Position numbers and translations under genes: made by a program
DNA from: Dictyostelium discoideum
Taxonomy: Eukaryota
DNA length: 64,000 nucleotides
NCBI GenBank assembly: GCA_000004695.1
Contig: CM000150.2
Span: 3,488,001 to 3,552,000 of the forward strand
Direction: 5' to 3'
Notes under the pieces: generated by a model
The model's input: the letters and a program-made list of their open reading frames with translations, nothing else
Told to the model about the DNA's origin: nothing
Database searches by the model: none
Shown here: piece after piece, positions 12,588-60,768 of the stretch
How the letters are laid out: every line of letters starts with the position of its first letter
How positions within the stretch are numbered: the stretch's first letter is position 1

Positions 12588-15500
12588 TTAACCAACTCTA
12601 GGAATACAAACTTTGACATCAACAAAGAGTAATACCAAGAAACCAAGTACCAAGAATAAAACAATATTGTGAGCATGGTATGAAGAAGCATATGGCCATT
12701 GTTTTTCACTTTGACGAAGAGCCATTGGAATGAAAGACCATAAATGCCATAAGGTAGAGAAAGAGAAACCAGCTACGACAACCAAAAGCCACATATCATT
12801 TTGGAAACAATTAAATCTAAGTACAGCACTCATCATAGCCAAGATATTAACAACAAAGAGGATAATATTTGGAAGGAAAAGTCTTGAATTTTTAATGGTA
12901 TCAGATTCTTTGTTTGAAGTACGGAAAGATTGTTCAGCCTTATGTTTACCACTTGATTCTTGAGCATTATCATTTTCATTGACCAATTTAGTTTGACGGA
13001 AAACTTCACAAACTACTGGTTTCTTTACGAAATCTCTCTTCCAATTCCACATGGCTAACTTATGACGACTAATCTTTCTAGCTTTAAGAAGTTTAACGAT
13101 TGAAGCGGAACCTTCTCTCCATGATGAAATATAAGTACCAGCAAAACCAAAGAAAGTTTGTTCAGCTCTCCAAAGATCAGTAGCTTCTACCCAAAGTGAT
13201 GGACCACTCTTACCGGCTTCATAAGGTCTCTTGGCTCTAAGAATCATATATTGAATGACTCTTGGTAACACCATTACAGGAATCATACCGACGAGAATGA
13301 AAATGATTGGATCTTTTACAACGATTGGTACAGTCCAAATACTCATAATTAATGGAGAAGCACCATAGAAGAAAGCAGTTGGTGAAAGGAATGGATAAAT
13401 ACAAGAATCAAGATTGTAAAGCATCTTTCTCCAACCAAGTTTACCTCTAATGTAACCCCAAGGAGTGAGAGAGAAAATTTCAACTGCACCTTGAGCCCAA
13501 CGTTTTCTTTGTTCCAAAGTTTCTTTAAGATCTACTGGAGCGGTACCAACTACAAGTACTTCATTGTGATACCAAGATTTGTAACCACTAACTTGTAATT
13601 TCATACCAGTATACATATCTTCTGTTACAGAGTTATACATAATACCACCGATATCATAGAGTGGTTGACGTCTGAAAATAGCGTTTGTACCTACGAAAGG
13701 ACAGGCATTGTTTGCAGAACGACCTTCCATTACTGGACCATAAAACTCCATATTACGATGACCTAATGGATCGTCTACTGGATAAATGTTACTAAAGAAT
13801 TGTGGTGTTTGAACAAAAGCCAAATCTTGACCTTCATCACTGTAAAAGTATGGTAAAACTCTTTTGAGGAAATCTGGATGAGGTTGTTGATCTGCATCAA
13901 GTAAACCAAGGAACTCGTAATCGGCTTTAGTTGATTCATTAAAGAGGGCATTATTGATGTTACCTGCTTTATTATGTGGAATGGGTGGTTTACGTCTACG
14001 AAGGTAGGTACATTTTGGTGAAACTATTGGACCATCACAAGTATCGAAATCTATACGTACATTACCGGAAGAGATTTCATCCCATGGTAACTCTTGTCTA
14101 CCCATCATCAACACTTGATATTGTGCCATTGCTAATGCTTCAGTATTGAGGAATCTAAGACGATGTTGATTATTCAATTCGGAAACAAAGTTTCTAACAT
14201 AATCTTTCTTTAAGAGAATTGAACGAATCAATGGACGGAAGAATGCTGAACCATGCCATAATGATTGGAGGGAGTCAATGGTAAAGTTGGAAATCTTTTC
14301 ACTCTCACTCTTTGTGAATGTACGATATGGTGAGAAATTATCATCACGAAGTTTAGCGATTAAAGCACGTTCAGCATCATCGGCATCTCTTGGAATCTCT
14401 TGACCAACACCAAACCATGAATTCAATAGGAAATATTCAATAAACCATTGAACCTCTGCTTCAATGACTTCCTTTGTTGAGGATTCAATCTTTGAACTGG
14501 TTTCATTTAGAATACCATGTGGATCTTCATGTTGACTTGTTACAGGTGGACGAATATTGTGAACGGAATAAACTGCCTTTTGTAAGAGTACATAAAGGAA
14601 ATTCTTTTCAACCGATTGAAGATGTGCCCAACCTCTTGATTCACGATAATTTACAGAATCATCCAATAAACCAATCCAAAGGTTTTCACTTGGATAATCC
14701 ATAGAGATTGCAGTTCTAAAAGTACGTGATACAATGGATGGTGGTTCTTTGTAAGTACAAACGTACATCATAACGGTTGGATGCTTCTTTCTTCTCTTGG
14801 CAAGGATTTGTTCCAATGTTACCACCAAAACAAAAGTACATGGATTGGTAAAGTTATTCAAATGCAATGCTGAACCCAAAAATGAGATAAACTCTACAAT
14901 GATGAAAAGGATTGAATAAGAGAATGTGATATAATCGGTTCTATTCATTGTCCAACCGGCACGATATGCAAAGTAAAAAATATTCCAAATTAAAAATACC
15001 GCCATGGTTGCTTGAAGAATTGCATGAGAAAAGTATGGTTTAACTTCAAATACAACCTCCTTCTTCTCTTCACCAATGATTGTCTCTAATGTTTCAGAAT
15101 CTTCTTTGGCGACATGTTTCTTTTTACTTAATTGCATTGATGATGGTTTCTTCTTTTGTGATGACAACTCTTTATCTTTTTGCTTTTGTTGTTGTTGCTG
15201 TTGTTGTTGTTGCTGTTGTTGCTCTTGGTATACCTTGTGTTGACGCATTTTCTCTTCCATCTCTGCTAAACTAATATCAGGATCAACCAATGTATCAAAT
15301 CTTTGACCGCCACTTGTTGTGCCATATTCCGATGATGGAGAATTCATTTCCTTTGGGAACTGTTTCTTTTGTTCATCATTACCGCTGCCGCCACGAGAGT
15401 TTGAAGATGATGGTAAATCATCCATACCTTCACTAATTGGTAAACCTTCGGTTATATTACCATCGTCACCACTACCACCATCATCTTCACCAAAGTCCAT

Positions 15501-15767
15501 CACAGTATTCTTTTTCTTTAAAACACCACTACTCTTTAACTTTCTCTCTGAATCTTTTCTAACAGATTTCTTTTTTAAATCTCTTGCTATCCATTTCAAA
15601 TTGCTTTGTGATGGTTTTGGTTTTAAATTTCTACTACTTTGATTATTACCAATATCTCTACCAATATTATTACTACTATTATTCATACTATTATTATAAC
15701 TACCCCCACTACTATTTATATTATTAGGGGTGTTTATTGGGAAATCACCCCCTTCATTTCTATCCAT
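12588..15767 (-). CDS. dcsA: Cellulose synthase catalytic subunit (UDP-forming), intronless, 1059 aa
   Basis: GT-2 processive glycosyltransferase motifs are present: LLDDSVN, GLLDADQQP, VTEDMYTG and QRKRWAQG (QxxRW). TM clusters flank the catalytic loop. Length and architecture match Dictyostelium DcsA (1059 aa). Confidence 0.9.
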   Translation of the reverse strand: MDRNEGGDFPINTPNNINSSGGSYNNSMNNSSNNIGRDIGNNQSSRNLKPKPSQSNLKWIARDLKKKSVRKDSERKLKSSGVLKKKNTVMDFGEDDGGSGDDGNITEGLPISEGMDDLPSSSNSRGGSGNDEQKKQFPKEMNSPSSEYGTTSGGQRFDTLVDPDISLAEMEEKMRQHKVYQEQQQQQQQQQQQQKQKDKELSSQKKKPSSMQLSKKKHVAKEDSETLETIIGEEKKEVVFEVKPYFSHAILQATMAVFLIWNIFYFAYRAGWTMNRTDYITFSYSILFIIVEFISFLGSALHLNNFTNPCTFVLVVTLEQILAKRRKKHPTVMMYVCTYKEPPSIVSRTFRTAISMDYPSENLWIGLLDDSVNYRESRGWAHLQSVEKNFLYVLLQKAVYSVHNIRPPVTSQHEDPHGILNETSSKIESSTKEVIEAEVQWFIEYFLLNSWFGVGQEIPRDADDAERALIAKLRDDNFSPYRTFTKSESEKISNFTIDSLQSLWHGSAFFRPLIRSILLKKDYVRNFVSELNNQHRLRFLNTEALAMAQYQVLMMGRQELPWDEISSGNVRIDFDTCDGPIVSPKCTYLRRRKPPIPHNKAGNINNALFNESTKADYEFLGLLDADQQPHPDFLKRVLPYFYSDEGQDLAFVQTPQFFSNIYPVDDPLGHRNMEFYGPVMEGRSANNACPFVGTNAIFRRQPLYDIGGIMYNSVTEDMYTGMKLQVSGYKSWYHNEVLVVGTAPVDLKETLEQRKRWAQGAVEIFSLTPWGYIRGKLGWRKMLYNLDSCIYPFLSPTAFFYGASPLIMSIWTVPIVVKDPIIFILVGMIPVMVLPRVIQYMILRAKRPYEAGKSGPSLWVEATDLWRAEQTFFGFAGTYISSWREGSASIVKLLKARKISRHKLAMWNWKRDFVKKPVVCEVFRQTKLVNENDNAQESSGKHKAEQSFRTSNKESDTIKNSRLFLPNIILFVVNILAMMSAVLRFNCFQNDMWLLVVVAGFSFSTLWHLWSFIPMALRQSEKQWPYASSYHAHNIVLFLVLGFLVLLFVDVKVCIPRVG

Positions 15768-16233
15768 TATTTTTTATGACAAGAAATTGAATTTATATAT
15801 ATTTGTATTATTATTATTATTATATTTAAATAAAAAAAGGATATTAAACTATAGTAAGTTGATTTTTTTTTATTATTATAATTAAAAAAAGAAAAATCTT
15901 AAATGGTTAATAATTAATTATAAATAATATAAAAAAAAAAAAAAAAAAAAACAAACAAATAATTATTTTTTTTTTTTTTATTTTTAAAAAAATAAAATTG
16001 ATTGACACAAAACAATATTTAATTTTAAACACACAAAAACATAAATATATATATATTATATTTATTTTTTTTTGATTTAAGAATTTTTTGGAGATTTATG
16101 TTAATTAATTTAATTATTACCCTAAATATTATTAATTTTATATGGATATGGTATTACAAATATATTTAATTTATAGTTTTATTTTCTTATTACAACAATA
16201 AAAAATATAAAGTAAAAACTGTTGTTGTTGTTT

Positions 16234-16264
<31 letters not shown>

Positions 16265-16559
16265 ATTATTTATAAAATTAAATAATAAAAAAAAAAGAAA
16301 AATAAAAAGTATAAATAAATAATTTTAAAAAAAAAAAAAAAAATAATAAAAATAAATAATTAAATAAAAATTAAAATAATTGTTGTATATAAGTGTGATG
16401 TATATAATAATTATTATTACTAAATTATTGTGGTTTGTTTTTTTTTTTTCTATATTTTTTATACATATCACCCAAACTAATAATAAAATAATTAAAAAAT
16501 AAATAAATAAAAAAAAAGGCAAAAAAAACACACACACCCTGTATATGTGCATGCACATA

Positions 16560-16700
16560 TATATATTTAAAAGTGCTAAATCTAAACAATTTGATGGGGT
16601 GGTTGATGTATGTGTGTGGGTGATATTGTGTGTGGTTTTGAAAAATAGTGGTATATTTTGTGGAGGTGGTGGTAGTAGTGATTATTTTAATTGTTTTTTT
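16560..16700. promoter_or_regulatory. G/T-rich island (plus strand; C/A-rich on the dcsA sense strand) about 0.8-0.9 kb upstream of dcsA. Candidate CAE/G-box-type element.
   Basis: GGGGTGGTTGATGTATGTGTGTGGGTGATATTGTGTGTGGTTTTG...GTGGAGGTGGTGGTAGTAGTG sits inside an otherwise >85% AT desert. Similar islands lie at 17690-17720, 18285-18300, 19085-19135 and 19200-19235. Confidence 0.3.
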
Positions 16701-17576
16701 TCTTATTATTTCCCTTTTTCAATAAGTTATTGATTGTTATGACAATATTTTTATTATTTTTATTAAGAGCGTTAAATTTTTTTTTTATTTATTAATACTA
16801 ATATGGTGATGATATTACTTTTTCTTTTTTTTTTTTTTTTTTTTTTTTAATTTTATAATTATTTTATTTTATTTTTATAATAAAACCATACAAATATAGA
16901 GTATTTGATTACTAAAAAAAAAAATAGTTATTTTGTAGTTTTTTTTTTTTTTTTTTTTTTTTTTTTGTTTTTTTTTTTTTTCTTTTTTTTGTTTTTTTTT
17001 TTTTGTTTTCTATTCAAATAAAAATAATACAATGAATAAATAATAATTATGATTTCAATGAAAACTTACTTTTTTTTTATTTTGCCAATATTAGATTATT
17101 ATTATTTTGGACAGTATTAAAAAGTTTTTTAAAACTAAAAATAAATAATTGAAAAAAAAAGGGGTTAATAATTATTATTATACATATGGAAATTAATTTG
17201 TTGATAACAAATAATTTTTTTTTTTCCAAATCTCCATAAATTTGTTATTACTCTTTATACAATCAAAATTAAAATAAATAATTAAATAAAAACACACGCT
17301 ATTGCTACACTACTAATACTAACGACTACCGTTTCTACTCTCTCTCCTCCCTTAAACAACAATATATTAAAAAAAAATTTAACTGGCTGTTATTATTTTT
17401 ATAATTATTATTATTATTTGAGATTAAATTATTTCAATTTTTTTTTTTAAAAAAAAAAAATTTTAAAAAAAAGATATTGAATTAAAAAAAAAATATATGG
17501 AATTATTCTTTTTTAATTAAACTATTAGTTAAATATAATTATTATTATTTTTTTTTTTTTTTTTCCAATTAATTTT

Positions 17577-17610
<34 letters not shown>

Positions 17611-17802
17611 TACAATTATATTGTGTTTAAATAATAATTATAAATATTGGAAGAAAAAAAAAAAAAAAAAAAAACTTGAAGGGGGTAGTGAGTGTGAGAG
17701 TAAAAGATAGTGGTGAAGTGTGGTTAAAACAAATAATAATTTAATTTTCAAAAATAGATAGAGATGGGTTGTGCAATTATTTATATTTATAGGTTATTTA
17801 TT

Positions 17803-17849
<47 letters not shown>

Positions 17850-18833
17850 AGGGTCCTTACAAATTTTAATACAAATAATTCGGGTATAATTAAATTAATA
17901 TTGAACAAACTTTATCGTTTTTATATTGTTGTTTCTCTTTTTTTTATATATATATATTTTTTATATATATATATTTTTTTTTTATTTTTTATTTTTTATT
18001 TTTTATTTTTTTTTATTTTTTTATGTAATGTTACTATTATATTGTTTATTTTTTTATTAATTATATATTATCTACAACTAATTAAAGTGTGAAATTCATA
18101 ATTATGAAGTTATTTTTATGATCAAAAAAAAAAAAATTAAAAATTAAAATTAAAAAATAAAAAATGAATAATATTTTAAAATAGATTAAAATAAATTCGA
18201 TGTTATTATTGTTAATTTTTTTAAAAAAAAAAAAGAACAAATAAAAATACTTGAATTGTTTAATTATTTGAGTATTCAAGAATTTGGGTGAGTGAGTGTG
18301 GTAGAATATGTTTTTCCATAAAAAAAAATATATTTTTTACTGAAAGTGAAATTACAAATACTAACCCAAACACGACTTTTTATTTTAAATTGGGTAATAA
18401 AGTAAAAAAAAAAAAAATAAATAAATTTGAAAAAACAATATTTTTTTTATTTTTATTTTTTAATTACAATAACCTCTAATTGTTGTAAAATAAAATAAAA
18501 TAAAATAAAAATACCTACTTTGAATTATACAAGTTTATTATTTTTTTTTTTTTTTTTACTTTATGGTTTGTTTTTTGATTAGAATTGGAAAAAAAAAAAT
18601 TTGTTTGTTTTTTTTTTTTTTTTTTATTTATTTAAAATTAAAAAAAAAAAATTTGAATAAATAAATAAATAGAAAATAAAAAATTAAATAAATAAATAAA
18701 ATATGGTCTTTATAGATTAAATTATAATTTTGATGAAGCGTTTATCAATATTATTTTTTTTTTTGTGTATGTGTTTAAATAATTTAATTGAAATTAAATA
18801 AATAACTTTTTTTTTTTTTTTTTTTTTTTTTTA

Positions 18834-18874
<41 letters not shown>

Positions 18875-19158
18875 TTAAAAAAAATATATGTATATATTAA
18901 AAAAATTAAAAAAAAATGGAAATTATAAAAAATAAATAAAAAAATAAAAAACAAATTTATTTGTATATTTTAATTGGCTTCAAAGTAAAACTTGTGTGGG
19001 TACATTCATTTGTGTTTTGTTTATTTTTTGATGATGAAAGAAATCAATTTGGGGAGAGAGTTTAGCACATATTTATAAAATTTATTTTCATATATAAACC
19101 ACACTCACACCCAAAATCATCATTGGGGTGTTTATACAAACACACAAATATTATTTTT

Positions 19159-19212
<54 letters not shown>

Positions 19213-20369
19213 TTTGTGTTTGTGTGTGTGTATGTTTTAAAACACCAAAACTGGTTTTTTTTTATTTTTTTAATTTATATTTTTTATGTAAGATGATACG
19301 ACACAGAATTAATCAATTTGATATGAATTGAAAAACAATAAAAAAAATAACAATAGCAGTATAACGAGAAAAAAATAATAAATAAATTAAAAAATTTAAA
19401 AAAAAAAAATGGAAAATATTAATAAAAAAAAATTTTATCTTATTATAGACGATATGAGTGTACCATTTTCGACTTTAAAACTTTCTAATAAAACATTTCT
19501 TTCTTTTTTTTTATCATTATTTTTTTTTTTTTTATTTTTTTTTTTTTTAAAGTGGTATCACTGACCTTTTTGAGCAACTTTTAATTTTTTTTTTTTTTTT
19601 TTTTTTTTTACTATTTCAAAAAGTTACTTTTCACTACAACTATTTTTAGAAGGTAATCGAGAACTAATCACTAATCTTTTTTTTTTAATACAATCATTTC
19701 TATCGAACTTTAATTTCTATTATCTAACTATTTTTAAGATTTAGTATCAAAAAATAAAAAATAAAAAAATAAAATAAAAATTTTTGGTTAAACGACTGAA
19801 AAAAAAAATATAAAAAGGAGTTTTTAAACAAAAAAAAACATTTACACAAAAAAAAAAGGCGCCTTTTTTTTTTTTTTTCAAAAAAACCACAAACATTGTT
19901 ATTTGCTGATTTTATTTTTTGGATTTTTTTTTTTTTTTTTTTTGATTTGAATTTTTTATTAATTAAAAAAAAAAAAACAAATTATAAATACCAATATTAA
20001 TTGTTGATTATTTTAAAAAAAACTGTTATTTTATAGTTAATTTTTATTTTTCTATTGGGCAATAAATATATTTTTTATTTTTTTAATTTTATTATAAATT
20101 AAATCATTCAACTCTCCAATACATTTCTTGGTCAATAGTTTGATCTTTAACCTTGGACAATGTACTTTTTAAAGATTTGTTACATATTTTGATTTCACCA
20201 GCTGATATTATGGATTAAAAAAATTTTTTTAAACAGTCTTTTCCAAATTTTGTTTTTTTTTTTTATTTTTTTGCACAATAATTTAAAAAAAAATTTTAAG
20301 TAAATATAAAAATATTTTATTTAATTAGATATATGTTAAGAATTTTTTTTATTTTTTTATTTTATTTAT

Positions 20370-21356
20370 TTAATTAAAAAAAAAAAAGAAAAAGAAAGAT
20401 ACAAAAGTTAAAGCAAATGAGAATAAATTGATTTTAATAAGATTTGAAGAATTAATTTCACTAAAATCAACAACGTCATTAATTTCAAAGAATTCATTTC
20501 TTATTCCACTATTACCATTTTCATTTTCATCGAAATTAGTATTAATACTACTCAATGAGAATTGATCGATATCTCTAATTGGAATCTCTTTTGAATTTTC
20601 AATTTCACTACTAAAACTTTCAATTTTATCATCACTTTGACTAGACTGATAACTATCAAATGAATTAATATTATTATTATTATTATCACTATTATTACTA
20701 TCACTATTATTACTACCACTACTACTACTACCACTACTACTACTACTTTGACTAATATTATTAATTATTGTATGATTATTAAAGAAATTTAAATCATCTA
20801 ATGGTATAATTTCAATATGATTAAGTGGAATAATTAAAGGATCATTTGAAATTGAAGTTGGATAAATATTTGGTCTTTTAATATAGATTTTAATGTAACC
20901 ATCATTTTGATCCACATTTTCAATTTTAAATTTTATGTATTCACCATTAATAGCACGGAATGAATATGATTTACTGAATGGACCTAATGGTTCTTGAATT
21001 GATTCATAGAAATCATAATAATATAATTTGAAATTAATATTTGAAATAACTTCAATTGTGAAAAACTTTTGATCACCATTATTAAAATATCCTAATGATT
21101 GGTTTGCACCTAACATTATCATATCTGTTGAAATTTCACCACCTGCTAAATGATATTTATTATTATTATTACTGTTACTACTACTATTATCATCAACTAA
21201 AACCTCTTTAACTCTTGAATAAACATAATCTATTGCACCTTCATGATTTGAATAAAATACAATAAAATGATTTTGTTGTTCTTCATCTTGAATATTTTGT
21301 TGACAAGAAATTAGTTTTATTAAAACTAAAAAAATAAATAATAATATTAGTTTCAT
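20370..21356 (-). CDS. Secreted or GPI-anchored Ser/Asn-rich protein (328 aa), function unknown
   Basis: N-terminal signal peptide MKLILLFIFLVLIKLISCQ, a central S/N-rich tract and a C-terminal hydrophobic tail LFSFALTFVSFFFFFFF (GPI-signal-like). Intronless. Confidence 0.55.
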   Translation of the reverse strand: MKLILLFIFLVLIKLISCQQNIQDEEQQNHFIVFYSNHEGAIDYVYSRVKEVLVDDNSSSNSNNNNKYHLAGGEISTDMIMLGANQSLGYFNNGDQKFFTIEVISNINFKLYYYDFYESIQEPLGPFSKSYSFRAINGEYIKFKIENVDQNDGYIKIYIKRPNIYPTSISNDPLIIPLNHIEIIPLDDLNFFNNHTIINNISQSSSSSGSSSSGSNNSDSNNSDNNNNNINSFDSYQSSQSDDKIESFSSEIENSKEIPIRDIDQFSLSSINTNFDENENGNSGIRNEFFEINDVVDFSEINSSNLIKINLFSFALTFVSFFFFFFFN

Positions 21357-21508: not shown

Positions 21509-22533
21509 TTTATTTTTTTCTTTTTTCGATTTTAAAAATTAAAATTTTAAAAATAATTGGTTATAAAAATGACAATAATATATCTGTTTGTATTTATGTG
21601 TGAATATTAAAATCTTGTCTCTTTTTCTTTGTAATTTTTAAAAAGAAAAAATAAAAAGATAAAAAAAATAATTTAAAAATGAAATAAAAAAATAAATAAA
21701 TAAAACATTACATATCTAAATGAATTTTCGAATGTGGGTTTTTTTATTTATTATAAAAAAAAAAAAAAAAAAAATAAAAAATAAGAAAATAGAATATTTT
21801 ATTATGTCAAATTTTAAAAAAAAAAGAAAAAAAAAAAAAAAAAAAAAGAAAAGAAAAAAATATTAAAGATGATGGGATTGAGGAAAAATTATTAAAAAAA
21901 AAAAATCATTTGGATGAATTGAATATTAAATCAATACTAAATTTAAATATTCATCAAATCAATAAATTCCATTGAACAATAATTTAATTTATTTTCTAAG
22001 ACATAGTTAAATAGAAATATAAAAAAAATATCCTAATTTATTTTTTTAATTTTTTTTTTTTTTTTTTTTTTTATTATTTTTTTTTTTTAACCTATGTTTG
22101 AATATAAATATCTTGTTTCTTTTTCTTTGTAATTTTTATAATAAATAATATCATGAATTGACAATAAAAAAAAATCTGAGTCAGCACACAGACAAGGTGT
22201 TATTTCTGAATAAAAAAAAATTCAAAAAAAAAAAATTTAAAAATACAAAAAATAAAAAAAAAATAAAAAAAAATAAAAAAAAAAAAAATAAAAACAAAAT
22301 ATTAATTAATTTTATGTCATTAATAAAACAAAACATAATAATAAAAATAAATATTATTTATTATGAAATAAAAAAAATAAAGAAAAAAAAAAAAAAAATA
22401 AAAGTAAAATAATATTGTGGAAATAAAAAAAAAATAAAAAAATAAAAAAATGAATAAAATATATGAAAATAATAATAATTTTGAAAACCAATTATTTAAA
22501 AAACTATCTTTATGTAAGTATGTTCCACAAATA

Positions 22534-22694: not shown

Positions 22695-22768
22695 TTTTTC
22701 AAATTTTTTTTTTTTTTTTTTTATTAACACCAAATACCACACAATATTAAAATAAATATGTAGCTACC

Positions 22769-23836
22769 ATGAATGATGAACAGATAACAACAATTAATAA
22801 TCATAATACTCTAGATGAACAAGAAGATGAAATAAACAAATTAACAACATCTTCATCATCATCAACTTCATCATCACCATCAACTTCTTATATTACATTA
22901 AATAATGCACCACCACCAACAACAACACAACCAAAAATTCCAATAATAACACCACCAACAACAACAACAACAACAACCACTACTACTACTTCGAATACTG
23001 CTAATACTACAATAAATAATGATTCAATTTTAAAATTAAATATTGGTGGTGAAATTTATTATACGACTGTATCAACGATATTATCAGACTCAAATTCAAT
23101 GTTTTATTTAATGTTTGGTACTGGTAGATTTAATGTACAGAAAGGAGATGATGGTACTATATTTATTGATAGAGATGGTAGATATTTTCATTACATATTG
23201 AATTGGTTAAGATCAAAATTTATACCATTCATAAAGGATGATGCCATAAGGGATAGTGTTATGAATGAGGCTAAATATTATCAAATCACAAGTTTAATAG
23301 AGTATATGCAATACCAAATAGCATCACAAGCACCACCACCCGATATTGAAAAATTCTCACAAAAAGAAATATTACAATTGGTGAATCTATCACACCCAAA
23401 CCAACCTATTCAATTACCGTCTGCCAATCTATCAGGTTTGGATTTATCAGGTTTGAATTTAAAGAATGCTAATCTTAGATTTGCAAATTTAGAAGGTTCT
23501 CTATTGAAATATTGTAATTTGGAGGATGCAAATCTTGAATCTGCAAATCTTAAAAACTGTGATCTTAGATTTTCAAATATTTCATGTTGCAGTCTACAAA
23601 GAGCTCAACTTCAAAATTCACAACTTCAATACTCTTCCTTTGTTGGCTCAAATCTATCTGATGCTGAATTATGTGATGCACAACTTCAAAGTGCTGATTT
23701 TCAAAGTGCAAATCTTCAAGGTTCAAATCTTCAAGGTGCAAATCTGTTAGATACAAATTTACAAAATGCAAAAGTTCAAGGTACTTCATTTAGTAGAGTT
23801 CTTAATGTTCAACGTGCTAAAAATTTAAAAAGATAA
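22769..23836 (+). CDS. KCTD9-like protein: BTB/T1 tetramerisation domain followed by pentapeptide repeats (355 aa)
   Basis: T1/BTB: LKLNIGGEIYYTTVSTILSDSNSMFYLMF..IFIDRDGRYFHYILNWLR. Then more than 15 A(N/D)LxxA(N/D)L pentapeptide units (ANLSGLDLSGLNLKNANLRFANLEGSLLKYCNLEDANLESANLKNCDLRF...). Confidence 0.75.
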   Translation: MNDEQITTINNHNTLDEQEDEINKLTTSSSSSTSSSPSTSYITLNNAPPPTTTQPKIPIITPPTTTTTTTTTTTSNTANTTINNDSILKLNIGGEIYYTTVSTILSDSNSMFYLMFGTGRFNVQKGDDGTIFIDRDGRYFHYILNWLRSKFIPFIKDDAIRDSVMNEAKYYQITSLIEYMQYQIASQAPPPDIEKFSQKEILQLVNLSHPNQPIQLPSANLSGLDLSGLNLKNANLRFANLEGSLLKYCNLEDANLESANLKNCDLRFSNISCCSLQRAQLQNSQLQYSSFVGSNLSDAELCDAQLQSADFQSANLQGSNLQGANLLDTNLQNAKVQGTSFSRVLNVQRAKNLKR

Positions 23837-55257: not shown

Positions 55258-56525
55258 TATTATTATTATTATTGTTATTATTACTAAATGTTAAAGTATT
55301 AATATTATTATATGAAGAATTACTTGGTGATGAAATCGATGGAAATGAAGAAAGTGATAAATTTAAATCGTTCGGTGAATTAATTTCCTCACTACTTATA
55401 CTATCATTACTGTCTGTCATATCGATATTCGAACCACTATTTAAAATTAAATTTGGATTATTCCAAAAATGGATTTTCAAAAACTTTTTTAATTGCTGAA
55501 ATAATTCTATCCTTTTTATATTTATATCACCTGTTTATTTTTTAAAATTAAATTATTTTTTTATAAAAAAAATGTTAATAATACTCACATTTATGAAAAT
55601 TAAAAATAGAAAAAAAAAGTGAATATAATAAACATACCATGATAAAATTCAAATTTAATTTCTTTTAATAAAAATTTTACAGATTTTACAACACTATATT
55701 TTATAGATGGATTTATTAAATTTGATTGTTTTAATAAATTTTTACAATCTTTTTCTAATTGAATAATTGATTCTTTAAAATCCTATAAATTTTTAAAAAA
55801 AAAAAAAAAAAAAAAAAAGATAAAAAAAAATTATATATATTAATATTAATATATATATAAATCTATATATATAAATCTATATCTATCTATATGAAAAATT
55901 AAAATAATTAGTTTTTAAAATATAATTTACAATTAAATTTGTTTTATATTTTCTATCAGTTTGTTCAGTTGTATTTGATTTTAAATTTACTAAATTTGAA
56001 AGTTGTTTTTCTATATTTGATATTATTTCTAATGTTGAAATTCCAATAAATTCTTCACATTTAATAAATTGTTTTAAAATTGGAAATTTTCCAAGATAAT
56101 CAATTTCTTCAATTAGAAAAGTTTCATTATCACTCTCTACTATTATAATACCTTTATTCAGATTAAAATATTGTGATCCCATTGAAGAATTTATAATTAT
56201 ACCATTGTTATTAATATTACTACCATTTCCATTATTATTATTATTATCCCTATAATTATCCATCCTTCTACCTATTAAATTCGATATATTATATATTTTC
56301 TGTTGTTTTTCATTTTCTAAAATCTATAATTATTATTATAATTTTTTTTTATAATAAATTAAATTTTAATAAATTATTTTTGTTTTTTTTTTTTTTTATT
56401 TGGAGAGAAAGTCTTTCTCTTACTTTTAAATATAATTTTTTATTTTCTTCTATAAAGTCGAAAGAAATTACTTGATCTAAGGTATTGAATCTATTTTCAT
56501 TCCAACCCCATAAAATTACAACCAT
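51581..56525 (-). CDS. Large RasGEF (REM/RasGEF_N + CDC25-homology catalytic domain) with poly-N/poly-Q/poly-T tracts. Exons (minus): 56424..56525, 55931..56323, 55638..55782, 51581..55530. About 1529 aa.
   Basis: The 3' exon carries a RasGEF_N region (..FYRSIKYASLNQLILKLTCESNTELRFTKTFITTYRSFTTGDIFLMKLIQRY) and a CDC25 domain (..SKMMLKMIKICYALYKLSNFNGLLAGLSGLMASGVYRLNHT...YRDIIHSTCPPLIPYLGIYLTDLTFIEDGN). Upstream exons are joined by GTAAGA/TTATAG (phase 0), GTAAAT/TTATAG (phase 0) and GTATGT/AAACAG (phase 1). The first ATG is at 56525 (MVVILWGWNENRF..). The 5'-most exons are less certain. Confidence 0.8.
53800..54000. repeat. (TTG)n on plus = (CAA)n on the coding strand. Encodes two long poly-Q runs in the RasGEF.
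   Basis: A direct gttgttgtt... run. The antisense ORFs (poly-V, poly-L) in the track are artefacts of this repeat. Confidence 0.85.
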
Positions 56526-56932
56526 TTTATTGATTTCTATAATTTCTTTCCTCAAGAGGAAATTTTTTTTCTTTTTTTATTACTTTTTTTTTATTTCTGT
56601 TTGTTTTGTTTTGTTTTTTTTATTTTTTGTTTTTTTTATTATTATTTTTTTTTTTTTTTTATTCTTTTTTTATTCTTTTTTTTAAAAATAATCTCTTTAA
56701 AGTGTTTTCACATGTGCTCTTAATTTTCAACTAAATTTAATCTATTCTAAATTAATTTATTTGGCAATGCTATTTTTAATTTTATCGAATTATTTTTAAA
56801 ACTCTACAAAATGGGAAATTTGAAATAAATAAAATACTATAATCCTGTTATAATAATAATAATAAATAAAAAATAAAATAATAATAAAAATAATAAAAAT
56901 AATAATAATAAACCTTTTGATTGTATTTTGAT

Positions 56933-56986
<54 letters not shown>

Positions 56987-57365
56987 TATTTATTTTTTTT
57001 TTTTTTAATTAAAAAAATTATAAATTATTTATTTATTATATATAACTATTTATTTATATTTTAGGGAGCTTGTTGTACATAAGTTTTTTATTATTATTAT
57101 TATTTTTATTATTATTATTATTATTATTAATATGTGTGTGCTAGTGGTGGTTGTTGTTATTATTTGGATTTTTTATTTTTACAATACAATTATTGGTGGA
57201 TTTGATTGATTAATGATAACTATTATTAATTTAATTATTTTTATTTATTATTATTTTATTGTTAATATTAAAAAAAATAAATAAATAAATAAAAAAATAG
57301 AAAATAAAAAAAATAAAAAAAATAAAAATAAAAAAAAAAAAAGAAAAATTTAATAATGAGCTCTT

Positions 57366-57420
57366 ATTTTGTGTGAATGTGTGTGTGTGTGAGTGTGTGT
57401 GAGTGTGTGTTGTTTTGAGT
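57366..57420. repeat. (TG)n-like microsatellite (gtgtgaatgtgtgtgtgtgtgagtgtgtgtgagtgtgtg), ~850 bp upstream of the RasGEF start. It is CA-rich on that gene's sense strand.
   Basis: Seen directly. Confidence 0.7.
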
Positions 57421-57673
57421 GTGGTATCCACATATATAAAAAAGAGTGTGCTAGTAATTTTGATTAAAAAAATACACCACAGAAGCTTACCATTACCTTT
57501 TATTCTCAACTTTTTTTTTTTTTTTTTTTATTTTTATTTTTATTTTTTCCAATTATTATTATATTTTGTTTCTGTACTAAAATTTATGTTGTGATTAAAA
57601 AGGACTGTTATTATCATTATTATTAACATGTTAATATTATTATTATTATTAATTTAATAATGAATTTTAAAAA

Positions 57674-57708
<35 letters not shown>

Positions 57709-58329
57709 CTTTAAAATACAAAATATTCATATTGCTAAATTTATATAAAAAAGCTATTTTTATACAATCACAATCAATTCTCCTATTAGATTTTCAACAC
57801 ACAAGCACACCCCATGCAAATTTTAATTTATATATACATATTTTTATATATATTTATATACAAGTTGTCAAAATAATCAGATCTTTTATTTTTTATTTTT
57901 TATTTTTTTTTATTTTTTATTTTTTATTTTTATCTGGGTTATTTTCAATAATAAATAAAAATAGAAAAAAACAAAACTATTATTAATTTAATTTTAATTT
58001 TTTTTTTAATTTTTTTTGTTTTTTTAATTTTTTTTTTTTTTTTTTTTTTTCCAACAGTTAAAAAAAAAACAATAATAATAAAAACAATAAAAATAATAAT
58101 AATAAAAATAATAATAAATAAAAAATATTAAAACCATAGTTATATATAAAAGAGAGGTTAATGAATGACACTAAACAATTAATCCAATAACCTGCATGCA
58201 TTCATACAGATAAAAACTACTAGTTAATATTTCATCTTTGAAATTTCCACACACTCACTCACAAAAAATTTGAGTACACTAAACAAGATTCAAAGAGATT
58301 AATTAAATAAATTGGAGATGGGTGAATGA

Positions 58330-58371
<42 letters not shown>

Positions 58372-58582
58372 TAATTTAAACAATTTTTATTATAATCTAA
58401 ATGTTGATTGTTTTTGATTTAAATCTAAAAATAATTTTTGAAGTGCATGGTGGTGTTTTAAAAAGGAAATTTATTTTTTTTTAAAAAAAAAAAGGAATGA
58501 AAAATAAAATTAAAAATTAAAATTAAAATAAAAATGAAACAATTATAAAAAAATAAATAAAATTATAAATTATAAAATTATA

Positions 58583-58613
<31 letters not shown>

Positions 58614-58767
58614 GTTGAACAAAATTTTAAAATAAATTTAAAAATATAAAAATAATAATGGTATTTAAAGTTTTTTTAATGATTTTGATGTGATCAAAAA
58701 TAAACAAAAAAAAAAAAAAATAAAAAAAAAATAAAAAAATAAAAAAAAAAAAAATTAAAAAAACTCA

Positions 58768-58804
<37 letters not shown>

Positions 58805-59013
58805 ACTTATTTTATATATTATTTACACAAATTCACCTTTCTCACACAAACTCACTTAACTCACCCCAAACCAAAATAACCTATTGTATATAAATTGATA
58901 AACGTATTATTAAATACTCACTTTCACTCACTTCACTCTCACTCTCACTCCCACTGCATTCTTCACCTCCAAAACAAAACTATAAATACTTATTTATTTA
59001 TTTAATAAAACAC

Positions 59014-59055
<42 letters not shown>

Positions 59056-59266
59056 GCAAATTTGTTAATAGTAAAAGCAACCCACACTCACTCACTCACT
59101 CACACACAAAACATTAAAAAACAGAAAATATAGAATATAATATAAATATAGACACACACTCACCCTCACTCATATATATACAACATACATTTAAGTACAA
59201 AGAAAGACAAAAACAATAATAATAAATAATAATAATAAATAATAATAATAACAATAACTGATTTAA

Positions 59267-60768
<1,502 letters not shown>

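Follow-up and report, generated by a model that had tools for sequence, protein, structure and literature searches.

An AT-rich, ORF-free region upstream of the Dictyostelium discoideum cellulose synthase gene dcsA as a probable extended 5' control domain

The dcsA upstream region and its published transcripts

In D. discoideum, the single cellulose synthase needed for stalk and spore walls is encoded by dcsA, whose promoter has, to our knowledge, never been dissected in this species. The window analysed here, i.e., the whole stretch of 64,000 nucleotides at chr1:3488001-3552000, contains dcsA on the minus strand (chr1:3500588-3503767); all positions below are those of the window, with an offset of 3,488,000 derived from the dcsA coordinates. 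[quoted passage not shown] The spacing of 0.1-1.4 kb that had been given for the other genes is roughly true, but low-GC gaps of up to ~2.5 kb, the next longest, also exist.

The absence of any credible ORF upstream of dcsA, as claimed in the same description, holds. All ORFs of at least 50 aa in 15768-20369 are low-complexity strings of F, I, K, and N, none of which reaches the Pfam cut-off; neither a tRNA nor, even at E<=1, an Rfam match was found there, and no protein gene is called within the dcsA upstream region in a second D. discoideum assembly. Calling the region gene-free was nevertheless wrong, since four intergenic lncRNA models had already been published inside it; formally, these are the transcribed genes whose discovery in the desert had been named as evidence against its reading as an enhancer region.

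12588-15767, minus strand: dcsA
16057-16846, plus strand: lncRNA DDB_G3970023 (CUFF_476_1), antisense to the intron proposed below (PMC5295588 supplements)
16975-17481, plus strand: lncRNA DDB_G3970945 (CUFF_477_1), antisense to the proposed leader exons (PMC5295588 supplements)
17298-17393 and 17068-17134, minus strand: lncRNA DDB_G3974039 / CUFF_478_1, two exons (PMC5295588 File S4)
17672-18536, plus strand: lncRNA DDB_G3970157 (CUFF_479_1), divergent from the proposed distal promoter (PMC5295588 supplements)

Expression of these models correlates with that of dcsA to different extents, with r = 0.90 for DDB_G3974039, 0.75 for DDB_G3970023, 0.70 for DDB_G3970945, and 0.23 for DDB_G3970157 (PMC5295588 and its supplements). 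In that study, curation as lncRNA relied on the lack of a tiling path to a neighbouring gene, and reads were mapped with a 500-nt intron maximum; its available text gives no knock-out phenotype for the four loci. The plus-strand models overlap the proposed leader and reach 17481, so that a single leader does not account for all transcription there; part of their signal may be strand leakage.

Conservation, G/T-rich islands and transcription factor binding

The region was compared in four species, D. discoideum, D. citrinum, D. firmibasis, and D. dimigraforme. Between 15768 and 19850, 45-61% of positions per segment are identical in all four, versus 31% in a neighbouring intergenic region, and the difference is larger for G/C positions (52% versus 20%). 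Of the ~4.5 kb that had been taken as one block, the conserved part thus ends at 19850, whereas the distal ~0.5 kb is an unconserved spacer. Sequence conservation of the dcsA upstream region is not detectable outside the D. discoideum species complex. An extended stretch without ORFs is itself found 5' of dcsA well beyond it: it measures 4.1-5.8 kb in the complex, 6.0 kb in D. purpureum, where the neighbour gene is different, and ~3 kb in both T. lacteum and H. album. That such a stretch recurs in Dictyostelia whose neighbouring genes have changed suggests that a control domain has long been under constraint. In P. pallidum, dcsA promoter fragments of 1.6 kb and 3.0 kb were reported to give different expression.

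Within the AT-rich sequence, every G/T-rich island quoted in the preliminary description is present, 5-10 nt away from where it had been placed (16596-16635, 17681-17700, 17710-17723, 18286-18301, 19100-19130, and 19209-19234). Together with their surroundings, these islands can be described as follows.

16528-16635, no strand assigned: island 1 group, ACACACACACC and a 16-nt x 2.2 tandem G-box-like unit, 9 KGKGKGK matches
17681-17723, no strand assigned: island 2, sense-strand CCACACTTCACCAC...CTCACACTCACTACCCCC, under the weaker SpaA summit
17717-17777, no strand assigned: 61-nt block adjoining island 2, conserved in the four species
18286-18301, no strand assigned: island 3, sense-strand CCACACTCACTCACCC, 8 nt from the strong SpaA summit
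18993-19146, no strand assigned: island 4 group, TGTGTGGGT and two inverted half-sites, ACACCCAA and TTGGGGTGT, ~9 nt apart
19209-19234, no strand assigned: island 5, (TG)n-like run
19851-20369, no strand assigned: unconserved spacer, 3' flank of DDB_G0270940, 5% of positions identical in the four species

[quoted passage not shown] It has 18 matches in 6 clusters in 15768-20369, where 1000 first-order Markov simulations averaged 1.3 matches and 1.2 clusters, making islands ~14-fold commoner than composition predicts; its density of 3.9 per kb compares with 1.0 per kb in the window's remaining low-GC DNA. Across the whole window, 71 matches are found where 25 are expected, and GT runs of a like kind also occur in other intergenic parts. 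Paired half-sites fitting the consensus lie at 16528-16635, at 18993-19001 with 19107-19146 (on both strands), and at 19221-19231; the scan gave no match in islands 2 and 3 (17681-17723 and 18286-18301).

Conservation of the islands in other dictyostelids, a check that the preliminary description had itself put forward, was found to a varying degree within the four species, but there is no sequence-level match beyond the D. discoideum complex. The flanks of island 1 (16566-16607 and 16627-16671) are conserved and interspecific indels in the island measure 18, 4, and 16 nt, which rules out coding sequence there; the group can be regarded as a set of candidate GBF sites, located inside the proposed intron. 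Island 2 keeps its CA-rich character at the orthologous place in the four species. Island 3 is identical in three of them and reads CCCACACCCACCC in D. firmibasis. The island 4 group, with KGKGKGK on both strands and 87% of its G/C positions identical in the four species, would be the best-conserved candidate GBF site. The sequence of island 5 is poorly conserved, yet it is CA-rich in all four.

Published ChIP-seq data place two SpaA summits in the region, chr1:3506278 and chr1:3505713 (PMC5923282 SupData1), or 18278 and 17713 of the window. The former lies 8 nt from island 3 and the latter inside island 2, a coincidence to be read with the reservation that, where a genome is 85% AT, ChIP peaks may be biased towards islands of higher GC content. 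The peak at chr1:3506278 was detected in all three experiments with a fold enrichment of 7.0-9.2, and that at chr1:3505713 in experiments 2 and 3 (PMC5923282 SupData1). The stronger peak stands in row 2 of the genome-wide table of SpaA peaks at protein-coding genes, among those of pspE, cotA-C, and pspB, and the published list of spore-wall SpaA targets includes dcsA, to which two reproducible peaks are assigned. Islands 2 and 3 share the 10-mer AGTGAGTGTG; the same 10-mer is also present at two positions that lack a listed SpaA peak, 58250 and 59083, and therefore the islands alone do not specify SpaA binding. In addition, GtaC occupies the dcsA promoter, somewhere in the region, and does so solely at late aggregation, the stage at which the gene is turned on. 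Expression of dcsA is induced from 12 h, a timing compatible with dependence on gbfA.

Taken with the conservation and the P. pallidum fragments, SpaA and GtaC binding support the earlier proposal of a large developmental cis-regulatory region for dcsA. The view of the islands as factor-bound sites stands for two of the five that had been listed, which coincide with SpaA peaks, but GBF, which had been put forward as the driving factor, is not the factor shown: the SpaA-bound islands are without its half-site consensus, and a literature search found no GBF ChIP, EMSA, or GBF-dependence data for dcsA.

A proposed distal start and leader of dcsA

We favour, with a probability of about 0.65, the view that the desert is an extended 5' control domain of dcsA, around one third of which probably lies within the dcsA transcription unit. 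The main new element of this proposal is that the minus-strand lncRNA DDB_G3974039 (17298-17393 and 17068-17134) is probably a non-coding leader of dcsA, with the following features.

17394-17520, minus strand: possible core promoter for the distal start, containing conserved blocks as well as TATA-like and T-run sequences
17298-17393, minus strand: proposed leader exon 1a, the first exon of DDB_G3974039, with a GC-richer conserved block at 17298-17331
17135-17297, minus strand: intron of 163 nt, GT..AG, between the published minus-strand exons (GT 17297-17296, AG 17136-17135)
17070-17134, minus strand: proposed leader exon 1b, the second exon of DDB_G3974039 / CUFF_478_1 (PMC5295588 File S4)
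15849-17069, minus strand: proposed 5'UTR intron of 1221 nt, GTAAGT...CTATAG, with a conserved donor and a parallel in T. lacteum
15768-15848, minus strand: 81 nt following the putative CTATAG acceptor, proposed to be the 5'UTR portion of the exon with the ATG

DDB_G3974039 is assigned to the dcsA strand because of its GT..AG intron at 17135-17297, whose acceptor, TTTATTTTTAG, is conserved. Its second exon (chr1:3505068-3505134; PMC5295588 File S4) has its 3' end 2 nt into a GTAAGT (17069 to 17064) that is the sole one on the minus strand in the 4.6 kb and is identical in the four species. The transcript thereby shows the strand and canonical splice sites expected of a dcsA leader. In exon 1a, the block 17298-17331 is 91% identical in all four species, and beyond the 5' end of the model, at 17393, the blocks 17411-17460 and 17485-17515 reach at least 90%. 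At the other end, the CTTACTATAG/T motif 81 nt upstream of the ATG is conserved in the four species, as is the block from -6 to -34. CTATAG is a putative acceptor, chosen by conservation alone; the reverse complement of the motif is a plus-strand GTAAGT at 15854, and its conservation could hence serve another purpose. The 1221 nt between the proposed donor and acceptor are identical in all four species at 58% of positions.

A comparable leader architecture is present in the T. lacteum orthologue, where one RNA contig aligned to the genome places the leader exon of dcsA between -1981 and -1657 and shows a 1397-nt intron (GTAAGT...TTTTAG), spanned by a single contig, together with a second intron of 122 nt. 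CA-rich islands lie 215-305 nt upstream of this leader.

Transcription of dcsA would start at a distal promoter at or slightly upstream of 17393, ~1.6 kb from the ATG, giving a pre-mRNA with two short non-coding leader exons, 17393-17298 and 17134-17070; removal of the 163-nt intron and of a ~1.2 kb intron (17069-15849) would join this leader to the ATG exon. Provided that DDB_G3974039 is indeed the dcsA leader, the bound islands 17681-17723 and 18286-18301 are only ~0.3 and ~0.9 kb upstream of the distal start and would act as promoter elements, both being occupied in culminants by SpaA, a Cud-type factor driving spore-wall genes. SpaA peaks have a median distance to the start codon of -415 to -434, which the dcsA sites fit if counted from ~17393 and not from the ATG, and the impression of a "-2.5 kb enhancer" probably arises because distances were taken from the ATG. 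The groups at 16528-16635, in the intron, and at 18993-19234 would be candidate sites for a post-aggregative (GBF/GtaC) or a stalk component, and the plus-strand lncRNAs, of which DDB_G3970157 covers both SpaA-bound islands, may represent promoter-associated or antisense transcription of the active domain.

Against this proposal stands the length of the intron, typical Dictyostelium introns being far shorter than 1.2 kb, as does the plus-strand transcription that overlaps the leader. With odds only slightly better than even, we would extend the proposal as follows: the distal promoter ~1.6 kb upstream and the ~1.2 kb 5'UTR intron, ~8 times the usual Dictyostelium length, are shared with T. lacteum and hence old within Dictyostelia; DDB_G3974039 is an artefact of the 500-nt limit; and the intronic G-box islands and the antisense transcript could point to an additional, proximal promoter or to a control element within the intron, giving separate spore, stalk, and (ancestral) cyst modules, as the 1.6 and 3.0 kb fragments of P. 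pallidum hint.

Alternatively, dcsA transcription could start beside the ATG, with the 4.5 kb acting as a far-upstream enhancer field of GBF-bound islands and the lncRNAs being enhancer-type by-products. Several islands do fit the GBF consensus in pairs, dcsA is on at 12 h as GBF-dependent post-aggregative genes are, CUFF_476_1 begins on the opposite strand, 290 nt before the ATG, as divergent transcription from a proximal promoter would, and the conserved block at -6 to -34 would suit a proximal start. We nonetheless hold this to be rather unlikely, since the two islands with in vivo data bind SpaA and are without the GBF consensus, no GBF data for dcsA came out of the literature search, and a proximal start leaves unexplained both the spliced same-strand transcript ending at a conserved GTAAGT and the T. 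lacteum leader. Proximal and distal promoters could also coexist, the two models not being mutually exclusive. That the four lncRNAs are instead independent genes with functions of their own, the minus-strand one not belonging to dcsA, agrees with their curation as lncRNA genes in PMC5295588, with the splicing of one of them, with the correlation of three models with dcsA (r = 0.70-0.90), and with the 91% conservation in exon 1a. It is an improbable reading given that a 500-nt intron maximum would make any distal leader look like an lncRNA, that the minus-strand model stops on a splice donor and not at a terminator, and that the T. lacteum orthologue joins a comparable exon to dcsA coding sequence; nor does the available text of PMC5295588 give a knock-out phenotype for these loci.

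The (TG)n-like nature of island 5 and of parts of island 1, whose length differs between species, and the comparable GT runs in the window's other intergenic DNA would also suit a neutral AT-rich spacer, with the islands as functionless, microsatellite-like products of GT/CA slippage. This is very improbable in view of conservation exceeding that of the neighbouring intergenic control, above all at G/C positions, of SpaA summits on two islands along with GtaC ChIP, and of the recurrence of the long 5' region in distant species with different neighbours. Least credible of all is a hidden, unannotated protein-coding gene or small structured RNA gene, even though the gene caller of the other D. 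discoideum assembly extends the upstream gene to ~20032 and odd multi-intron calls of 66-191 aa appear upstream of dcsA in three other species: the low-complexity ORFs and the empty Pfam, tRNA, and Rfam searches speak against it, indels between species are not multiples of three, 19851-20369 is unconserved, and leader exons explain the odd calls, which share the strand of dcsA, at least equally well.

The control domain proposed here bears on the choice of reporter fragments: the real promoter is probably 1.6 kb upstream, with the SpaA-bound islands just beyond, and, if the leader is true, a 1 kb "promoter" fragment would hold intron only. A distal start would also explain an apparent outlier of the SpaA ChIP-seq, a top-ranked peak 2.5 kb from the start codon, and it flags an annotation risk, in that mapping RNA-seq reads under an intron-length maximum can make "lncRNAs" out of distal leader exons. 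Moreover, a long-lived dcsA control domain accords with the evolutionary connection between encystation and sporulation. The result is useful at the annotation level; the element itself is not of a new kind.

Comparison with known systems

The dcsA region resembles the prespore and spore-coat promoters of D. discoideum (cotA, cotB, cotC, pspB) in its CA/GT-rich islands within AT-rich DNA and their conserved AT-rich flanks, in the strength class of its SpaA peak, which is that of the cotA-C, pspB, and pspE peaks, and in that dcsA, too, is a spore-wall gene. A GBF site together with an AT element forms the minimal prespore unit, according to the title of Powell-Coffman 1994. The bound islands of dcsA differ from the CAE/G-box of prespore promoters in being without a KGKGKGK half-site and from typical SpaA targets in their distance to the ATG, which is 1.9 and 2.5 kb where the median for SpaA peaks is ~0.42 kb. 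Unlike pure prespore genes, dcsA is also needed in stalk cells, and more than a prespore module is thus expected.

Alternative or distal promoters and spliced non-coding leader exons also occur in other Dictyostelium genes, among them pdsA. Alternative promoters are used by acaA and carA (GtaC paper) and, for srfA, are named in the title of a cited reference. Like these, dcsA is a developmental gene with a multi-kb 5' region and a proposed non-coding leader on a common coding exon, and the proximal and distal promoter regions of P. pallidum dcsA are likewise functionally distinct; the junction of leader and coding exon in D. discoideum dcsA differs in being a proposed one. The closest parallel is drawn with T. 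lacteum dcsA, which has a leader exon, there 1.7-2.0 kb upstream of the ATG, a long GTAAGT...AG 5'UTR intron along with a short one, and CA-rich islands located 215-305 nt further upstream than that exon. The long and the short intron, however, occur in the opposite order, the leaders are without detectable sequence similarity, and the last T. lacteum intron ends 3 nt before the ATG, unlike the 81 nt proposed for D. discoideum.

Finally, the unspliced plus-strand transcripts, divergent from or antisense to an active promoter domain, are reminiscent of enhancer RNAs, or of promoter-upstream and antisense transcripts, in animals and yeast, and two of the three are co-expressed with dcsA; unlike their animal and yeast counterparts, they are known only as Cufflinks models, with possible strand leakage from a very abundant sense transcript. 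As for animal-type distal enhancers, the distances of the dcsA islands become promoter-proximal if the distal start is real.

The AT-rich interval upstream of dcsA

The 1059-aa ORF of D. discoideum DcsA occupies window positions 12588-15767 on the minus strand, the same as chr1:3500588-3503767 (-) reported for DDB_G0269124 in the supplements of a developmental lncRNA study, where the next gene upstream, DDB_G0270940, lies at chr1:3508370-3509356 (-), i.e., window 20370-21356 (PMC5295588). As these gene coordinates match exactly, the window corresponds to chr1:3488001-3552000, and the region under study, 15768-20369, spans the entire interval from the 3' end of DDB_G0270940 to the dcsA start codon. 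With 14.7% GC, versus 21.9% in the window, it is the largest low-GC stretch in a 200-nt GC profile of the window, broken by two short patches only, and the next largest gap measures about 2.5 kb. Its ORFs of at least 50 aa are low-complexity strings. The G/T-rich islands (CA-rich on the dcsA strand) quoted in the preliminary description were all found, offset by 5-10 nt from the coordinates it gave, and the GC profile, the island positions and simulated controls confirm its picture of a low-GC, ORF-poor and island-bearing region as real and non-random.

G/T-rich islands of the region
16528-16635, island 1
17681-17723, island 2, at a SpaA ChIP-seq summit
18286-18301, island 3, at a SpaA ChIP-seq summit
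18993-19146, island 4
19209-19234, island 5

A hidden protein gene was rejected, as none of the nine region ORFs of at least 50 aa gave a Pfam match above cut-off (two weak low-complexity matches fell below the gathering score); likewise, no protein gene is called in the region in a second D. discoideum assembly. A structured RNA gene was rejected after a tRNA scan of the whole window, which returned zero, and after Rfam searches, with no match at gathering score window-wide and none at E<=1 in the region. An extra DDB_G0270940 exon, placed by a gene caller in the other assembly and reaching to about 20032, was rejected, since the stretch is unconserved (5%) and the extension is also contradicted by single-exon calls in other species. 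The product of DDB_G0270940 itself (20370-21356, minus strand) is 328 aa long and rich in Ser/Asn; its N-terminus is hydrophobic, and no Pfam domain is recorded for it. The gene is a late one, as is dcsA, and its FPKM climbs from about 2 up to 94 at 22 h.

Transcripts of the region and a predicted dcsA leader

The interval had been described as gene-free. It is in fact transcribed, since the lncRNA study lists four intergenic models within it (PMC5295588), and the description must be given up on this point. Formally, this is also the outcome, a transcribed gene in the desert, that the preliminary description had named in advance as refuting it.

Intergenic lncRNA models, with r with dcsA (PMC5295588)
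16057-16846, plus strand, CUFF_476_1 / DDB_G3970023, r 0.75
16975-17481, plus strand, CUFF_477_1 / DDB_G3970945, r 0.70
17672-18536, plus strand, CUFF_479_1 / DDB_G3970157, r 0.23
17298-17393 and 17068-17134, minus strand, CUFF_478_1 / DDB_G3974039, r 0.90

In the minus-strand model, the 163-nt intron between the exons begins with GT (17297-17296) and ends with AG (17136-17135) on the dcsA strand, which fixes the strand of the transcript. The 3' end of the model, at 17068, falls 2 nt inside a GTAAGT (17069->17064), the only one on the dcsA strand within 4.6 kb, and this GTAAGT and its flank, GTAAGTTTT..TTGAAATCATAA, are identical in D. discoideum, D. citrinum, D. firmibasis and D. dimigraforme. 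Reads in the lncRNA study were mapped using TopHat with --max-intron-length 500 (PMC5295588); any longer intron thus went undetected, and a distal leader exon was bound to come out as an "lncRNA" of its own. At 81 nt 5' of the ATG there is a candidate acceptor, CTTACTATAG/T (the slash marks the splice boundary, here and below), which is kept in all four species amid variable sequence; its use would give an intron of 1221 nt. We therefore favor, with a probability of roughly two in three, the reading that the minus-strand lncRNA is the non-coding leader of dcsA, its junction to the coding exon being a prediction in D. discoideum. No DcsA was found among the D. discoideum transcript contigs searched.

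Independent support comes from T. lacteum, where alignment of an RNA-derived Logan contig (L007, from ERR3252991) to the genome contig (L006) gave three blocks: a dcsA leader exon at -1981 to -1657, a second exon of 134 nt, and a coding exon that begins 3 nt before the ATG. The long intron (1397 nt) reads AAAG/GTAAGT...TTTTAG/ and the short one (122 nt) GTAATT...TTAG/. Two more T. lacteum RNA contigs confirm the short intron, and both end in an A-run before the long one.

In the lncRNA study, DDB_G0269760 (CUFF_481_1, 22417-22513 and 22764-23836, plus strand) has a leader exon spliced over a 250-nt intron, so leader exons were recovered where the intron is below the 500-nt limit. Expression of the minus-strand lncRNA also follows that of DDB_G0270940 (r = 0.92). 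On the plus strand, CTTACTATAG itself reads as a GTAAGT donor (15854-15859); being readable on both strands, its conservation is not assignable to one strand from sequence alone. Within the 163-nt leader intron, positions 17227-17269 (TTTGATTGT..AAAGAGTAATAACAAATTTATGGAGATTT) are nearly invariant in four species and may serve as an alternative exon or for control. A TATA-like TATAAAAATAA at 17403-17393 was not adopted as core promoter, since its position coincides in part with the 5' end of the modelled transcript; by the same token, the start may be further upstream. In D. purpureum (L003), the sole sense-strand GTAAGT in 6 kb upstream of dcsA, AAAAGATCA/GTAAGTATAATGGG at -3520, is a candidate donor of an even more distal leader exon. 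Gene calls with very short products, stretching over 2.7-4.2 kb, are also found upstream of dcsA, all on its strand, in D. dimigraforme (L005 4714-8935, 125 aa), H. album (L008 4431-7101, 66 aa) and C. fasciculata (L009 5354-8818, 191 aa); these may be mis-modelled dcsA leader exons rather than genes.

Factors at the islands

The preliminary description had linked the islands to the G-box binding factor GBF. The GBF half-site consensus, (T/G)G(T/G)G(T/G)G(T/G) (PMC2257962), has 18 matches in six clusters in the region, against means of 1.3 matches and 1.2 clusters in sequence simulated with the same first-order composition, and the density of 3.9 per kb compares with 1.0 per kb in the window's other low-GC DNA. 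Composition by itself would therefore not yield the islands by chance. The consensus is present in some islands but absent from the two with binding data, 17681-17723 and 18286-18301, and the literature searched gave no data on GBF binding or GBF-dependence of dcsA, and no promoter dissection of the D. discoideum gene. What these two islands bind in vivo is SpaA; the others are candidate GBF sites. The SpaA ChIP-seq supplement assigns two peaks to dcsA (PMC5923282).

SpaA summits assigned to dcsA (PMC5923282)
18278 (chr1:3506278), -2508 from the ATG, 8 nt from island 18286-18301
17713 (chr1:3505713), -1946 from the ATG, within island 17681-17723

The -2508 peak is enriched 7.0-9.2-fold in three of three experiments and occupies row 2 of the table of protein-coding SpaA peaks, in the company of pspE, gnt11, pspB, psvA, cotB, galE and cotC (PMC5923282). 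Islands with 10-nt margins make up about 6% of the interval, and by our own rough estimate both summits would fall on them by chance with a probability of about 0.4%. The dcsA locus is a bona fide target of SpaA binding. Relative to the proposed distal start, the summits lie at about -320 and -885; measured in this way they are in line with the genome-wide median of SpaA peaks, -415 to -434 from start codons (PMC5923282), and are no longer extreme outliers.

Both bound islands contain an exact 10-mer, AGTGAGTGTG (sense strand CACACTCACT). It is not sufficient for SpaA binding, since it recurs at 58250 and 59083, where no peak is listed. These minus-strand copies, with many near-copies around them, belong to a second GT/GAGTG-rich island cluster (57378-57410 and 58247-59170) in an ORF-poor stretch at about 56263-59907, and no SpaA peak is listed at the matching positions, chr1:3545-3549 kb.

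Binding of GtaC is also documented: ChIP-seq found dcsA bound at late aggregation only, with peak coordinates not stated there, and in RNA-seq from the same study dcsA, at about 1 initially, reaches 244-416 by the last time point, other columns, presumably the null, staying near 1 throughout (PMC4506546). Expression of dcsA rises sharply at 12 h and a second time at 18-22 h (PMC5295588).

Conservation and organization of the region

Over about 4 kb the region can be aligned colinearly to its counterparts in D. citrinum, D. firmibasis and D. dimigraforme, with 71-74% identity. When the four species are aligned by MAFFT, 45-61% of the D. discoideum positions per segment are identical in all species across 15768-19850, and 5% in the last 519 nt of the interval; by the same measure, the intergenic DNA upstream of DDB_G0270940 reaches 31%, the fast-evolving DDB_G0270940 coding sequence 69%, and dcsA, over the first 1500 nt of its coding sequence, 85%. 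G/C positions are conserved at 52% in the region versus 20% in the control. Throughout the interval there are many blocks of 20-76 nt in which at least 90% of positions are invariant, among them a 61-nt block adjoining island 2 and those flanking island 3. The islands lie at orthologous places in all four species, and several stay CA-rich though their sequence or length changes, as in ACCACACTCACTCACCC -> CCCACACCCACCC in D. firmibasis, or in island 1, whose indels of 18, 4 and 16 nt between species rule out coding sequence. This pattern argues for constraint on composition or motif. The best conserved island is the inverted half-site pair at 19107-19131, with 87% of G/C positions invariant. 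A (TGT)14 microsatellite at 16220-16262, at about -490 and reading (ACA)n on the dcsA strand, persists as a CAA-type repeat in D. citrinum; D. firmibasis and D. dimigraforme have not kept it.

Conservation of the islands in other dictyostelids, proposed as a check, holds within the four-species D. discoideum complex, with no similarity above shuffled controls detectable beyond it: when 11 conserved blocks were aligned locally to the 10 kb preceding dcsA in D. purpureum, T. lacteum, H. album and C. fasciculata, scores practically never exceeded those of shuffled controls, the few marginal excesses being low-complexity and BLAST matches being A/T runs only. A long ORF-free 5' region is found in close relatives (4.4, 4.1 and about 5.8 kb), in D. 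purpureum (6.0 kb with no credible ORF, next to a different upstream neighbor, a divergent proteasome gene), in T. lacteum (3.0 kb) and in H. album (2.9 kb). The P. pallidum null mutant regains spore-wall cellulose with a 1.6 kb dcsA fragment, and cyst expression requires a 3.0 kb fragment (PMC4210663).

Taken as a whole, the region is most likely a composite dcsA 5' control domain in five parts. An 81-nt 5'UTR would adjoin the ATG, preceded by a leader intron of about 1.2 kb carrying G-box-type repeats (16528-16635) and an antisense transcript, and then by two short leader exons with their small intron (17070-17393). Upstream of these would lie a distal promoter, its CA-rich islands placed at about -0.3 and -0.9 kb and bound by SpaA in culminants, then another 1.3 kb of conserved DNA that contains the GBF-type half-site pairs (18993-19234), and at the far end 0.5 kb of spacer free of constraint. 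The two-step rise of dcsA would fit an early post-aggregative input from GtaC, possibly also GBF, and a later one at spore maturation from SpaA; which input acts through which island is inferred. The proposal of an enhancer-type control region was therefore right in spirit, but wrong as to the factor and the lack of genes, and probably as to geometry. Binding and transcription here are already documented by existing genome-wide datasets; what is new is their synthesis, in which the annotated lncRNA is probably the dcsA leader and the real promoter would lie 1.6 kb upstream.

Nothing in the dcsA region needs a new kind of element, and its islands resemble the CAE/G-box and AT-element modules of prespore promoters. 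CACCCACCCACCC and CACCCACACCCC, two CA-rich islands of T. lacteum, precede its leader by 215-305 nt and in this mirror D. discoideum island 2, which precedes 17393 by about 290-330 nt. The dcsA arrangement may be likened to that of pdsA, another Dictyostelium gene with alternative or distal promoters. A multi-kb 5' region with a predicted spliced leader also recalls acaA and carA, genes with alternative or distal promoters according to PMC4506546, and srfA, whose alternative promoters are cited in PMC2257962.
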